DNA of 64,000 bases from Xylographa opegraphella (taxonomy: Eukaryota), in contig JALDZX010000017.1 in NCBI GenBank assembly GCA_022813865.1, forward strand, positions 310,001 through 374,000, given 5' to 3'. The stretch's first letter is position 1. Each line of letters starts with the position of its first letter. The notes under the pieces were generated by a model. That model was not told the DNA's origin and searched no databases. It worked only from the letters and a program-made list of their open reading frames with translations. The translations under genes were made by a program, and so were the position numbers. Shown here one piece after another: positions 1 to 9,158 of the stretch.

Positions 1-2069
1 TGGACTTCTATCGGCTTCTGTACAATATACCGAAAGTAATACTCTTTGTAGACACTCAACTATGTATCAGAACGGAGATTCGAAGCGCAGCCTGCAAGCT
101 ACAGAAAGGTCAGACTACCTTTGTGAACTAGGTTCCAACAATGCGTTGTGACGGGCTGTGAGTTAGTGAATGAATTCAGTGCAAGTCAGTATGTAAGTCT
201 TGTTACCGGAGACCTGTGGTTCAGATGGCTGTGCAGGATTTCAAGCTCCTGGTGCCTAGAGGACCACGAAAAGGAGACTTTGAGCTCGGTTGTTATTGCA
301 TGGGTAAGGCTTGATGGAATCCCTCGTAACCGTAATCTACTTGACCAGCCATTCTGAGCTTGTGTATCACAGCACGAGGCATGTATACGCAAGTGAGTAT
401 TATTTCACCACCGAGTAGGACCATGGATTGATGTGAATCACAAACACCACACGCTCGGACAAGTGTTCAGTCTGGCGACCAAGGCAACAAGCTGACTGAT
501 GATTGTTGGCGCGGATAGACGCGCTCTCTGTGATGGGTGGGTACCGCGATGTTTTTGAGGAAACCCACGGATAGCAAGCATTCAGCGAGCACGCAGATAC
601 GGTAGGCACACCACCGCGATTGTGAAGATGGGATACCCCAATCGTCTCTCATCGAGTGGTGCTGATGTCTTGCCGACCTTACCGTACCAACCAAGGCTTT
701 TGTGTCGCTTGTCAAGTTATCAGCACGTCGCGTAAGGTACCTAAGAGGTGGACACCCTTTTCGATACCTACCTTACCTTACCTAAGGTACCTCGTGAGCC
801 AGTTTACTATTTCCCCGCACTTCTCTGAGCGGAAAGGCGCCTTCCTCCACAGCACCAAAGGAACTGATCAGGATACCAGATCGACAATCTTCTTGGCCGT
901 CAGCAGTCACATGCTGGGACCACATGCATCAGGCACGTCACCTGGTCCTACAGATGAACCGCTTGTGAATCCCGCGTGTGTACCGCTGACAATTCATGAA
1001 CTGAGTCCAAATAAACTTGCAGGACCCGAAAGTCATTCGCAAGGTAGTATGGTATAGGGGCAACCCTGAGGCCCGGGACACGAAGAGTAGTAAACAAAAT
1101 GAATATCATCGTTGCAAGTTCGGATGCTCCAGCTGTCAGCTCCATCATTGACCTGCCCATCCAGAACCTTGTTCTCGTTCCTCCAGTCCAAGAACCCATT
1201 TGTCTGACATTGGAAGATGCCAATATGGACTATGATGCTGGATTGAAGCTTGGGGGTTCATTCAGGACTCATCGTCCAGATACCTTACTTTCAGCATTAG
1301 GGGCCTGCTGTCTTACCTTCCACGTCTATCGCTTAATCATAGGTCCTTCGTTTCAGAAGGAATATGCGTGGAACGATGTATCGGCGCTGGTTCGGCTACC
1401 ATTGGCGTGAAACCCCTTCCCATTTCTATCCCCACAGGTGATCCGTGGGCGTGTGTAAGGTTAGGTTAGCAATCCGTCCAAACTGGCAAAGACTCAGCGA
1501 GATCCACATGCAGGAGTATATCGCAGTGTTCCAGTGTTTGGCGACCAAGCCATGCAAACTACCAAATAAGGGCACACCATACGACGACTTCCCACAGGTC
1601 CACATAATCCTATCTAACGTACAAGGGGTTGGAATGCTTGGAGCGTGGTGACGGTGAGAAAGTCAGGTAGGAGAGGCGCGAAGGATGAAGCTGGGATATG
1701 GAGAATGCAACTGGATCTAATCTACAGACAACATATTCAAGTACGCTCGGGACCAGGCAGCGGATCAAGGACTGAGACATCGTGTCCACATACGATCAGA
1801 AGGTACGACAAGTGCACCTCCTTCGCAGATCCACTTTGGAATTGATCTGCTCGAATCGGCCGGCGGTGGCGCCATTTACCGGGTGAGCGCTCACTCCTGA
1901 AGTATGTACATGCAAGAAAGTCGAACATCGCATAGATGCGCCGCATCTGTTCGTCACTCATATAAAACAAAGTGTGTCCCTGCACGCGAGGCACAGCCTG
2001 ATCATCCAGATATCGTAGCCAAAATCGGCATGCTCTCTCGATCGTGAACTGGGGCAGAAGGCACGAAGA

Positions 2070-3135
2070 CTAATCCCAGTACCACTGCACGTTGGCATAG
2101 CGACCCACCCCTGACAATCCGAGCGTGTTGTAAAGTGCGGGCGAGAGATCGATGTCCTGGTTCCCTGCCTACGTAACTATTAGTACCGAACGAAGATCGG
2201 GAATGCAATGACAGTGGCCCGAGGAGAGCACTTACACAGCCAGCGCATTTGTCGACCACCATGCCCTTGTTGCTCTTCCCTGTAGCTGGGTTCGTAATGT
2301 GGAGAACGCGCCAGCAGAGCGGATTTTCGACTTCCCCGCTGCTCAAAGAACCCATCATTTCGTGCGAGACAGCCACGACGAAGTCGGTGTCTTGGTAAAT
2401 ATAACTGTTCGGCCCATAGCCGCAGGCTCCCAAACCTTGAGAAGGATTGTAAAAGGTCATGTCTCCAACACACGGCGTGCCGGCTGTGCATCCATCGGCT
2501 TGAGTAGCACCAGGCAGTGTTGCAACCTCGTAGGATTTCCCGTCAGAGGCTGGAGGAGCACCAACAGCCACACCTGACGCAGGCATTTCTCCTGCAGTGG
2601 CCCCGCCCACGACTGGTGCAGCGGGTGCAGCGGCGACAGGACTCGATACAGGTGCTGCAACTGGCACGGGTACTGAGGCCGGTGTTGAAGCTGCAACAGG
2701 AACTGGCGTGGTTGTAGATGTCGAAGTTGGGACTGGCACTGACACTGGCGCTGCAGGAGGGGTGTTGGCAGCAGCGGCACTTGTAGTCATTGAAGTCGTG
2801 GTCGTAGAAGTCGTCATTGCGGAAGTTGAGGTCGATATTGGCTGGATTGGCGAAGAAGCGGCTACTACTGACGCAATAGACGTGGTTGAAAAGGCGGATG
2901 CTGGGGCGACTGGGGTCGGCACTGGGACAAAGATCGCAGCTGGAGTGCTGGAGGTCGAAGTTGTGGTTGTAGCTGGCGGAAGATCACCGGGAGCGACCCA
3001 GATAGTTGTTACAACCTCGACAGTCTCAACCACTTCCTCAGTAACTGTGAACCAGATAATGTCGCGTTTAACCATCGGCGCTGCCGTGGTACAGGCTATA
3101 AACAGGGCAAAGGCTGCAATGCTGAAGGACTTCAT
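2070..3135 (-). CDS. Secreted RlpA-like double-psi beta-barrel (expansin-like/Asp f 7-like) protein with Ser/Thr/Pro/Ala-rich linker; 1 intron (2169-2235)
   Basis: Signal peptide MKSFSIAAFALFIACTTA, then KR site. C-terminal GDMTFYNP..GLGACG..FVVAVS..VVDKCAGC. The GTAAGT..ACTAAT..TAG intron restores AGNQDIDLSPALY...VQWYWD*. Confidence 0.85.
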
Positions 3136-4808
3136 GCTGGGTGGTAAAGAGTAGACCGTATATGGAACTTTTGAATAGGCTTCCCGGGCTACTTAACAAT
3201 GAGTGTGGTTTGATCGACTGGCGATACAATGATGCGTCCTCCGCAATGAATGTTGTCGCTTCTTGTCACAATGGTGCAAAATGGAACAGAAGTTTGACAG
3301 AGGGGAATGAATGAATGACACTGATTGGCTTGAAGAGAGCGTGCAGAGATGCAGGATCTGAGTTAAAGAACGTGAAGGCAGCCACTCTACAGAACCAAAT
3401 GAATGAAAGTGAGTGAGCAAATGGGAAAAGGCGCCGAGCGTGAGCGTGGAAGTGTCAAGGAAGGGAAACGAGATTCCTTTCATGGCCAGCGAAACAAGCC
3501 GACTAACAGGGGGCAGTGAAGCGGGGCCGCTGTGCAGGGGAAGGCCAGCGAGGTTCGCAGCCAGGCACACCAATGAAAAGACACGCTTGACCTAACAGTC
3601 GGGAGAACATCAGCGGCTGGCTCATGAAGCAGCGGGCTTTGATCAGCCGAACAGGGCCTGGAGACGCTGTGATTGGGCGAAGGATGACACAACGACAACA
3701 GGACTGGCTGTGCCTCTGGTTTCCGAGGTTTTTGTTTTGTTCCAGCGGCCTCCCTCCCGATTATGCATGATAGCGGTTGTGTATCGATAAGATGATCTGC
3801 ATTATGCTTCTGCCATGAATCCAGCATGCTGCCTATATCAGCAACTCGTTTGTTTGTAATATCAATTCAAATGTGCTTGAGAAAGAAGTCGAGTGCGACG
3901 CAACGTGGAACTCTTGAGGCTAATTCGCCAAGACTTCTTGGCCAGGCCTGAGCTTACTCTAACTGGTTAGATAAGGTACTTAACCTCATGCTACACGTGG
4001 CCCCTGAGCGTGTGCACCCAGCTGCACTTCCACCTCGACATATTTACGGCTGGTCGGTCAGTGCTCGTTATGCAATATGTAGTGCCTACCAAGCCTGATT
4101 GCAACAGCTCCCCGAATCAGGCCAGCGGTGGGAAATTCAAGTCCGGTCAGCTGTCAAGTCTATTACCATCCTCGGCCCACGCAGCACACTACGGTGGGAG
4201 CACCGCCCACAAGCTTACCTTTTGGCAGAATACAACGAGCCTATAGTAAAGTCCTTCTCTGTTTCTTATCTTTGGACTGTTCTTCTATATGGTTTTCTTG
4301 TATGGATGACGCAGTAGAATATTGGTCAAGGGATTTCCCCCATGCAGCAGCCAGTCGGCCGCTTCACCTCACACACGGCGCTTCGATCATCAAGTCTGCC
4401 TTTCTCCCCACTATTACTTACCTTATCACAAGTATCTGTTGTTTCTAAGCGGATAATGCATTAACTCCCTTACATAGCTGAAGAAGCTCCACAATAAATA
4501 TGGCTGTTGCAAATTGACATGCATATTTTAATACTCATTATGGTTGACTCAACTTATAACTACTACCAACCGGTTCAGAAGTTCAAAGAATAACAGAGAG
4601 CTACAGGAGATCATCCACCGCTACACCACCATTCCCAAAGAATGCACTTCACCCACCCCTCAAAGCACTGTCACAGCATGGCCTGGTGGCCGTAAACCCT
4701 AGGTGCCAAACGCCAAGCCGCACTAATCAATTTCAGTCATCGAGTCTCCCCCAGTCCTTTCAGCAAAACAAGGAAGAACGAAAGATCAGCAAAAAAGAAA
4801 AAGAAGCT

Positions 4809-4959
4809 TGCCCGGACAGGGATTTGAACCCCGATCACCCCCGAAAATGTTCCTGTTGAAATCGTGAAGTCGTCAAGGTATTAAACGATGTAGAGCTAAA
4901 CTATGTACAAGAAAGAAACCTGGTATTTTGGGGGCATGCTACCATTGCACCATCCGGGC
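4809..4959 (-). tRNA. tRNA-like Pol III gene, isotype undetermined; anticodon loop replaced by 87-nt insert
   Basis: Acceptor GCCCGGA/TCCGGGC+A73, D arm GTGC-AATGGTA-GCAT, stem CCCCC/GGGGG, 4-nt variable loop, T arm CGGGG-TTCAAAT-CCCTG. Downstream T5 and T6 runs (4791-4802) and upstream TATATATAA (4994-5002). Confidence 0.8.
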
Positions 4960-5727
4960 CTTTTTGTTGTTGAGGAACCACTGCGCTTAACCATTATATA
5001 TAGTTGCTGCTCTCGCCGCGCCTATCGCGCTTGGTCGGTGAGGTTTCGGTCTGCCTCATGCTTGCTCTGCGCACCTGAGGCGTCCACGCCGAGCTGATGA
5101 GAAGGGTCCTTGGGCTACGGGGACCTGTTGCTACTGTTACAGTCGTATCGCTGGTGGGGTTCTCAGGGTCGCGAAGTCATACAGATACTGTCCATCGCGG
5201 TGTTTTGTCCTACGCTGTTTCGTGCAAGTCCTGTTCATCCACATCTCTGCGTCTCTCGTGCACTCACTCCTCATATACAATCTTCATCTGCTGGATCTTA
5301 TCCTTCGAAATCTATACACCCTCATTCATCTCCAACGTCTCCACATAGATGGCAGACAACGCCGCCCACTCATCGCCTCCATCCCAAATTTCCCCTTTCC
5401 CCTCTCTTCCCACCCTCATCTGCACCCCGTGCGACCGAGTCGTCTCTATCCACCACCAACCCTCGCCTCACATCGCGGTCATCCACGCCCGACAGACCTG
5501 CACGCTTCTACAACAACCGATCACGCAACAAGCCGCAACAAGCCGCATCGAGCGAAACACTTCGTCTCAAGAACACAACTTCCTCAGTTCCAAACTCCCT
5601 GCTTCGGTGTACGGCGTCGAAGAGAAAACTGGACACAATTGATGACCATCATAACAGACTCTCATACGCATGATCAGTCGGATATGCCCGATGGGAGACT
5701 ACAATCGTCTTTCCATGTAGTTGGAAA

Positions 5728-5800
5728 TAGGGGTAGCACTGGCCATACTGTCGCACCGGTCATACTGTCGCACCGTCGCGCCGGCGAAATTATCGCACCG
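5728..5800 (+). mobile_element. Possible solo DNA-transposon terminus (TA + GGGG + three 17-bp subterminal direct repeats)
   Basis: TA-GGGGTAGCAC followed by TGGCCATACTGTCGCAC, CGGTCATACTGTCGCAC and degenerate CGGCGAAATTATCGCAC. No inverted partner or transposase noticed. Confidence 0.35.
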
Positions 5801-6197
5801 GCCGTTTCCGGATGAATGTATGGGCGGATCGATGGGCAACTACAGGCATTGTCGGAAGAGTCACCATATCAACTTCTCGCATCCTCTCTCTCTACCTTGA
5901 TTTCTTATGAAGGGAATGGGCTGGCTATACTTGCTTTTTCGAAACCTCTTGAGTCATACACTCTGAGTTGTTCAAGCAGGAATGAATTGAGCTACGCATC
6001 TAGGACATGCACGACGATAAAACCCTTCGCAAACTTCGACAAATGCACATTGTTACCCTCTGCCCTGCCTACTTACACCGCCAACCGCGAAGATGAAGTT
6101 GCCTTCCCAGTAGCTTTCAGTACGCCCTTCAATAACAACTCTGTACATGCAGTTCGTAGCTAGAAAAACGCCAACCACCGGACCCACAGTTCTGGTC

Positions 6198-9158
<2,961 letters not shown>

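Follow-up and report, generated by a model that had tools for sequence, protein, structure and literature searches.

A tRNA-shaped gene with a predicted 80-nt intron and a non-canonical anticodon loop in Xylographa opegraphella: a candidate disabled tRNA paralogue

Intron-containing nuclear transfer RNA (tRNA) genes are among the closest described systems to the element reported here, a tRNA-shaped gene on the minus strand of a 64,000-nucleotide (nt) stretch of DNA from Xylographa opegraphella (contig JALDZX010000017.1, positions 310,001 to 374,000; the whole 64-kb stretch is called the window below, and all coordinates are counted from its first letter). According to PMC10485636, the introns of eukaryotes with a four-subunit splicing endonuclease lie invariably between positions 37 and 38; in the eukaryotic pre-tRNA, intron bases pair with the anticodon loop, and the helix formed in this way stacks on the anticodon arm and extends it. 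The same source describes the splice sites as set largely by their distance from the tRNA body, and the sequence needs near the splice sites and within the helix as relaxed, only the proximal base pair being conserved and critical. Lengths of 6-133 nt are given for eukaryotic tRNA introns in PMC4090602, and animal tRNA introns of 113 and 323 nt have been predicted too (PMC8450103). As for decoding, PMC5041475 describes U33 as almost invariant and as the base making the U-turn, the exceptions it names being C33 of eukaryotic initiator tRNAs and G33 of the Candida tRNA-Ser that reads CUG. The modification N6-threonylcarbamoyladenosine at position 37 (t6A37) is reported as essential for tRNAs decoding ANN codons and as dependent on the motif 36-UAA-38; in tRNA-Ile, mutation of either U36 or A38 abolishes it (PMC8565320). 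According to PMC8450103, high-scoring tRNA pseudogenes whose anticodons are altered occur relatively often.

The gene in the window has the body, the promoter boxes and the predicted intron position of such a canonical gene, and an anticodon loop that departs from it. With about even confidence, and judging from its sequence, we read it as a splice-competent tRNA paralogue whose anticodon loop has been disabled, that is, as a high-scoring pseudogene.

Gene body and its detection

The gene is 151 nt long and occupies 4959-4809, with G1 at 4959 and A73 at 4809. Its parts are as follows.

4924..4959, minus strand: 5' exon, tRNA positions 1-37 (36 nt, without position 17), made of the acceptor 5' strand, the D arm, CCCCC and the loop bases AAAAUA (from the Rfam alignment and the sequence)
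4925..4929, minus strand: AAAAU (loop bases A32-U36), which forms the 5' arm of the predicted anticodon-intron helix and has AAU at 34-36 (from minimum-energy folds; pair probabilities 0.72-0.77)
4844..4923, minus strand: AU-rich intron, 80 nt if cut at the canonical 37/38, ending in five bases, AUUUU, that pair with 32-36 of the loop
4844..4848, minus strand: 3' end of the intron, AUUUU, the 3' arm of the predicted anticodon-intron helix (from minimum-energy folds)
4809..4843, minus strand: 3' exon, positions 38-73 (35 nt), made of C38, GGGGG, UGAU, the T arm, the acceptor 3' strand and A73 (from the Rfam alignment and the sequence)

The acceptor stem GCCCGGA/UCCGGGC consists of 7/7 Watson-Crick pairs, and the anticodon stem CCCCC/GGGGG is paired 5/5. 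Three Watson-Crick pairs and G10-U25 make up the D stem (GUGC/GCAU), four such pairs and G50-U64 the T stem (CGGGG/CCCUG). The D loop is 7 nt long, G18 and G19 included, the T loop reads UUCAAAU, the variable loop UGAU (4 nt), and the discriminator base is A73. The tertiary and conserved bases U8, A14, G18, G19, A21, U54, U55, C56 and A58 are all kept, as is the co-varying pair A15/U48, and the genomic base at -1 (4960) is a G. Exactly 87 nt separate the two strands of the anticodon stem, which confirms the count given in an earlier note on this DNA; the G+C content of this insert is 34%, compared with 66% in the exons.

When 4805-4963 was searched alone, the Rfam tRNA model RF00005 matched with 44.9 bits (E 6.3e-09; gathering cut-off 29 bits) over all model positions 1-71. 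The match treats the 87 nt as an insertion replacing the 7-nt anticodon loop, and the alignment backs the CCCCC/GGGGG frame with posterior probabilities near 1. Scoring with a covariance model had been proposed earlier as a check, and the match it produced exceeds the cut-off; given this score, its E-value and the full-length match, the feature is therefore not a chance resemblance. RF00005 was missing both from the gathering-threshold scan of the whole window and from a scan of 401 nt run at E up to 10, the speed filters having dropped the gene in both. ARAGORN at default settings likewise found no tRNA in the window; with introns allowed, it reported exactly one, the gene at 4959-4809. As default ARAGORN and filtered Rfam scans both miss it, annotation of long-intron tRNA genes may be skipped more generally. 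Other output was set aside: ARAGORN at a lowered threshold (-ps80) returned 117 'genes' in the window, discarded as noise, and Rfam at E up to 10 returned a T-arm match to mascRNA (16 bits) and a downstream match to SNORD59 (14.6 bits), both taken as chance.

Four motifs of the kind used by RNA polymerase III (Pol III) accompany the gene.

4994..5002, minus strand: TATA-like run TATATATAA, 35-43 nt upstream of G1 (read directly)
4942..4952, minus strand: A-box region TGGTGCAATGG, tRNA positions 8-19, which differs at two specified positions from the A-box consensus
4820..4830, minus strand: B box GGTTCAAATCC, the sole match to the consensus GGTTCRANNCC in the window
4791..4802, minus strand: Pol III terminator-like runs T5 (4802-4798) and T6 (4796-4791), beginning 7 nt past A73

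The TATATATAA run may act in Pol III initiation. The longest T run within the gene is T4; with no T5 inside, nothing internal resembles a Pol III terminator. The description of the gene in the earlier note as undecayed in body, promoter and terminator was borne out by the paired stems, by the box, TATA-like and T-run motifs and by the RF00005 match, and we are fairly sure that it is a genuine nuclear tRNA gene of Pol III type with an intron at the canonical position. A scan for sigma-70 promoters and intrinsic terminators was set aside as inapplicable to a eukaryotic Pol III gene. As a separate observation, the A-rich 5' leader (4960-4971) and the U-rich trailer and terminator (4792-4803) are 83% complementary over 12 nt (inverted repeat I1), so that the primary transcript could pair leader with trailer.

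The predicted anticodon-intron helix and spliced loop

In the minimum-energy fold, AAAAU (32-36) pairs 5/5 with AUUUU, the last five bases of the intron; this helix is stacked on the anticodon stem, C38 is bulged, and beyond it come a 5-nt bulge on the 5' strand (ACCAG) and a 6-bp helix, GUUUCU/AGGAAC. Such a layout (stem, 3'-strand bulge, short helix, 5'-strand bulge, second helix) matches, as far as a predicted fold can tell, an ordinary anticodon-intron architecture. The extension of the stem with a single bulged C had been noted earlier as a sign against normal splicing: the fold itself was reproduced, but this interpretation of it was not supported, since helices of this kind belong to the ordinary architecture described in PMC10485636. 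As the pairing is an A/U run, its register can slip. The lowest-energy register, with a 1-nt bulge and a 5-bp central helix, has -16.7 kcal/mol. A slipped register with a 4-bp helix (33-36 with -2 to -5), in which A32 lies opposite U(-1)/C38, has -14.5 kcal/mol, a cost of 2.2, and the textbook register, with A32:U(-3) and a 3-nt bulge UUC, has -10.6 kcal/mol, a cost of 6.1. The lowest-energy and the 4-bp relaxed forms both put the cuts at or beside 37/38; as the endonuclease measures from the tRNA body, cuts would be expected after 37 and before 38. The archaeal-type bulge-helix-bulge of introns at non-canonical positions, a 4-bp helix between two 3-nt bulges that fixes the splice sites without reference to the tRNA body, is not formed: in the minimum-energy fold the helix has 5 bp, and the bulges on its two sides are 1 nt and 5 nt long.

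Every join that takes x bases at the 5' side of the insert and 7-x bases at its 3' side was enumerated, which gives eight seven-nt loops. The canonical cut after 37 would lead to a 71-nt tRNA with the loop AAAAUAC (A32 A33 A34 A35 U36 A37 C38), in which the anticodon by position is AAU and a purine is present at 37; moving both cuts one base further on leaves the product identical. U33 is present in none of the eight joins. The earlier claim that canonical removal of the intron leaves a loop with neither Y32 nor U33 is thereby reproduced, and no simple splice gives a canonical loop. ARAGORN accepted all eight as tRNAs, three as Lys(ttt), one as Asn(att) and four, the canonical join among them, as Ile(aat); it also accepted 27/27 joins made in silico with 7-9-nt loops. 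An annotation relying solely on anticodon position would call the gene tRNA-Ile. Measured against a tRNA-Ile(AAU) decoder, however, the product has A33 in place of U33 and a C38 that breaks 36-UAA-38, and it is therefore unlikely to decode well. An alternative loop AUACCAU, of canonical shape on a 3-bp extension of the stem, was rejected because the resulting 8-bp anticodon stem is unfit for a decoder; by chance, some offset can be expected to show a U33/purine-37 pattern.

Weighing the readings of the locus

If the gene is a disabled paralogue, its 80-nt intron would sit at 37/38 with AAAAU/AUUUU as an ordinary anticodon-intron helix, and splicing would yield a 71-nt tRNA with the loop AAAAUAC and the anticodon AAU, which should be a poor decoder; the gene may nevertheless still bind TFIIIC, be transcribed and be spliced. 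This reading is favoured because high-scoring pseudogenes with altered anticodons are described as fairly common and two requirements of a decoder fail; transcription, splicing at 37/38, loss of decoding and a recent origin of the gene are what we infer under it. The case would then be an ordinary one, in which the anticodon loop changed before the body decayed.

Several observations weigh against it. The body is without any decay, every stem being paired and the tertiary bases kept, so that a pseudogene would have to be very young. At least two to three loop positions (32, 33 and 38) are off for an ANN decoder, the other exon bases being without defect, and random decay does not obviously provide a route to defects in the loop only. 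Moreover, the aberrant bases 32 and 33 are exactly those that complete the pairing with the intron, a pattern that hints either at selection for the helix or at one hairpin-templated mutation. The lowest-energy fold also places the 3' splice site at a 1-nt bulge; with this bulge, and with the textbook register 6.1 kcal/mol higher, splicing may be inefficient.

The undecayed body, together with A32 and A33 completing the intron pairing, keeps alive a different account, in which the gene is a scaffold for a non-decoding product. This would be either the released 80-nt intron, linear or circular and acting by base pairing, or a stable unspliced RNA of about 150 nt, and the tRNA body would be retained only because it provides a Pol III promoter, signals for RNase P/Z processing and what the splicing endonuclease recognises. 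We consider it unlikely, although worth keeping in view. Body, promoter and terminator are perfect and the anticodon loop is the sole non-canonical part, as such a scaffold would have it, and the loop bases 32-36 are paired 5/5 with the intron end; the nearest precedents come from yeast, where mRNAs are reportedly repressed by free tRNA introns via base pairing (PMC13079951) and where tX(XXX)D, a tRNA gene of undetermined specificity, is described as transcribed (PMC4937561). However, the intron alone is no stabler than its shuffles (z score +0.56; of 200 shuffles, 141 reach at least its stability), and the anticodon arm with the intron gives a z score of -0.68; the value for the whole gene is -1.48. 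Within the intron, Rfam at E up to 10 gave no match and inspection by eye no convincing arrangement of C/D or H/ACA boxes, and the gene's other matches within the window span just 9-17 nt, with E of at least 1.7, which is chance level. That selection keeps a non-decoding Pol III unit whose product is the 80-nt intron or the 150-nt RNA, A32 and A33 being kept to lengthen the helix, seems unlikely to us. If the odd loop and its intron pairing turned out to be kept in orthologues, the locus would represent a rare fungal tRNA gene re-purposed for a non-decoding product, and a natural test of what the splicing endonuclease needs of an anticodon loop as opposed to the ribosome.

The other explanations are less probable. 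A working isoleucine decoder would read with AAU (inosine-AU after deamination) despite A33, either charged by isoleucyl-tRNA synthetase through its anticodon or as a mistranslating chimera of body and anticodon. Canonical splicing would yield AAU with A37, and the A73 discriminator and the L-shape contacts are intact; against this, A32 is unusual, and a D loop of 7 nt with a variable loop of 4 nt probably does not fit the Ile pattern. A fungal tRNA with a purine at 33 is known to work, namely the Candida tRNA-Ser with G33 that reads CUG (PMC5041475), and anticodon shifts between tRNA families are documented (PMC3923123); here, however, A33 takes away the U-turn base (PMC5041475), and C38 breaks the 36-UAA-38 motif for t6A37 (PMC8565320). 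It is the lack of these two independent requirements that makes a working Ile decoder improbable. tRNA genes in general can serve as boundaries, and the locus might be a chromatin boundary bound by TFIIIC and Pol III between RSP5 and the next gene, its RNA being irrelevant. The full B box, the near-consensus A box and the location between an RSP5-type gene (~6300-9000) and an open reading frame (ORF) resembling Asp f 7/DPBB proteins (2002-3192) would suit this, but the boxes would suffice for it, and the four perfect stems, the bases of the tertiary pairs and the terminator are left unexplained. We regard it as quite improbable as an explanation in itself; it is compatible with the other readings and does not exclude them. 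A TFIIIC-only site, that is, a B box without a complete transcription unit, was rejected, a complete tRNA gene with terminator being present. Very improbable, in our view, is an intron at a non-canonical position, as in the tRNA-Lys(UUU) proposed by ARAGORN with an 82-nt intron after the first loop base and the loop CUUUUCG. The intron mode of the program does report it as tRNA-Lys(ttt), with the intron at 30-31 in ARAGORN numbering and U33 present; yet this model has to recruit G26 to the anticodon stem, paired G-U, so that position 26 is missing, the variable loop shrinks to 3 nt and position 37 is a pyrimidine, the Rfam alignment favours the CCCCC/GGGGG frame with posteriors near 1, and PMC10485636 describes eukaryotic introns served by the four-subunit endonuclease as lying invariably at 37/38. 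That an assembly or sequencing artefact conceals a normal loop is scarcely credible. From run X1, a Logan contig (length 83,275 nt; mean word depth 163) has 0 differing letters and 0 gaps against 4600-5200, a support that is not fully independent, as run X1 may be the source of the window assembly, though it comes from a separate assembly of the reads; such contigs drop rare variants. As this read-based contig is identical, an assembly error, which had earlier been named as something that would refute the case, is unlikely. Runs X2 and X3 of the same study had no contig matching 4600-5200 at 80% likeness, which is not evidence of absence in relatives.

Neighbourhood and comparison with known systems

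A gene for an RSP5/Nedd4-type E3 ligase lies on the minus strand at about 6300-9000, and the tRNA gene follows ~1.3 kb downstream on the same strand. The following domains were recognised in it.

8803-8949, minus strand: C2 domain
7180-8769, minus strand: three WW domains within this range
7025-7345, 6839-7021 and 6529-6906, minus strand: pieces of the HECT domain

From the differing frames of the domain pieces, several short introns are implied. Flanking the tRNA gene on its other side, the ORF 2002-3192 (minus strand, 396 aa) has no Pfam match; its nearest protein-atlas clusters are from Ascomycota and are named Allergen Asp f 7 or hypothetical (scores 0.92-0.93), and a lower-ranked cluster (0.88, a lead only) belongs to the Barwin family/lytic transglycolases, with DPBB and Barwin domains. 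A plus-strand ORF at 5042-5815 is probably not a gene, as it has no Pfam family and a low protein-atlas recognition score. With the RSP5 gene on one side, the Asp f 7/DPBB-like ORF on the other and probably no gene at 5042-5815, the locus is therefore intergenic. The intergenic ascomycete setting assumed in the earlier note agrees with both the RSP5-type gene and the Ascomycota-like ORF at its flanks, and the genome is ascomycete-like.

A 21-nt D-arm pattern of the gene is identical to 11 metagenome loci, all intron-less tRNAs, which ARAGORN assigned to Gln (8), Arg (2) and Gly (1), plus one adjacent Glu. These loci look prokaryotic, and several have an encoded CCA; we attribute the identity to convergence of a conserved arm, not to relatedness, and regard none of the 11 as a relative of the gene. 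In the literature, supplements lying outside the search, neither a fungal A33 tRNA gene nor an RSP5-adjacent tRNA-like gene was found.

The heads of tRNA-derived short interspersed nuclear elements (SINEs) resemble this locus in being tRNA-like and in having A and B boxes. The window, where GGTTCRANNCC matches once (4830-4820), contains no further copy of the gene or of parts of it, and neither the insert nor the gene is bracketed by terminal inverted repeats or flanking direct repeats. The gene closes with its own acceptor strand and terminator and is therefore not built like a SINE head, so that this check, raised earlier, went against a SINE: the terminator follows A73, direct repeats do not bracket the gene, and the window holds one copy. 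Unlike in SINE heads, the cloverleaf is full, including the 3' acceptor strand, with a terminator at once after it, and the extra sequence lies inside the anticodon loop instead of downstream of the tRNA-like part.

With free tRNA introns and tRNA intronic circular RNAs, the gene could share the use of a tRNA body as a vehicle for Pol III transcription and for release of the intron by the endonuclease, as described in PMC13079951 and PMC6614914; the known hosts of such introns, however, are also normal decoders. Candida tRNA-Ser(CAG) is likewise a fungal nuclear tRNA with a purine at 33, and it is functional (PMC5041475). In contrast to the gene described here, with A33 and a C38 that breaks the t6A motif, its G33 is conserved in the clade and has a known role in CUG reassignment.

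Saccharomyces cerevisiae tX(XXX)D and the high-scoring pseudogenes resemble the gene in combining a good body score with an anticodon region that precludes assignment. tX(XXX)D is counted among the actively transcribed yeast tRNA genes in PMC4937561, and anticodon mutations are described as frequent among high-scoring pseudogenes in PMC8450103. The anomaly here differs in standing beside a long intron, with altered bases that pair perfectly with the end of that intron.

Compared with canonical intron-containing nuclear tRNA genes, A32 and A33 take the place of a pyrimidine at 32 and U33, and the lowest-energy fold has a 1-nt bulge at the 3' site, where 3 nt are usual, and a 5-bp central helix. 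In other features the gene follows them: type-2 Pol III A and B boxes, an oligo-T terminator, a predicted intron one base 3' of the anticodon, a predicted helix stacked on the anticodon stem, and an intron length, 80 nt, inside the range of 6-133 nt (PMC4090602; PMC10485636).

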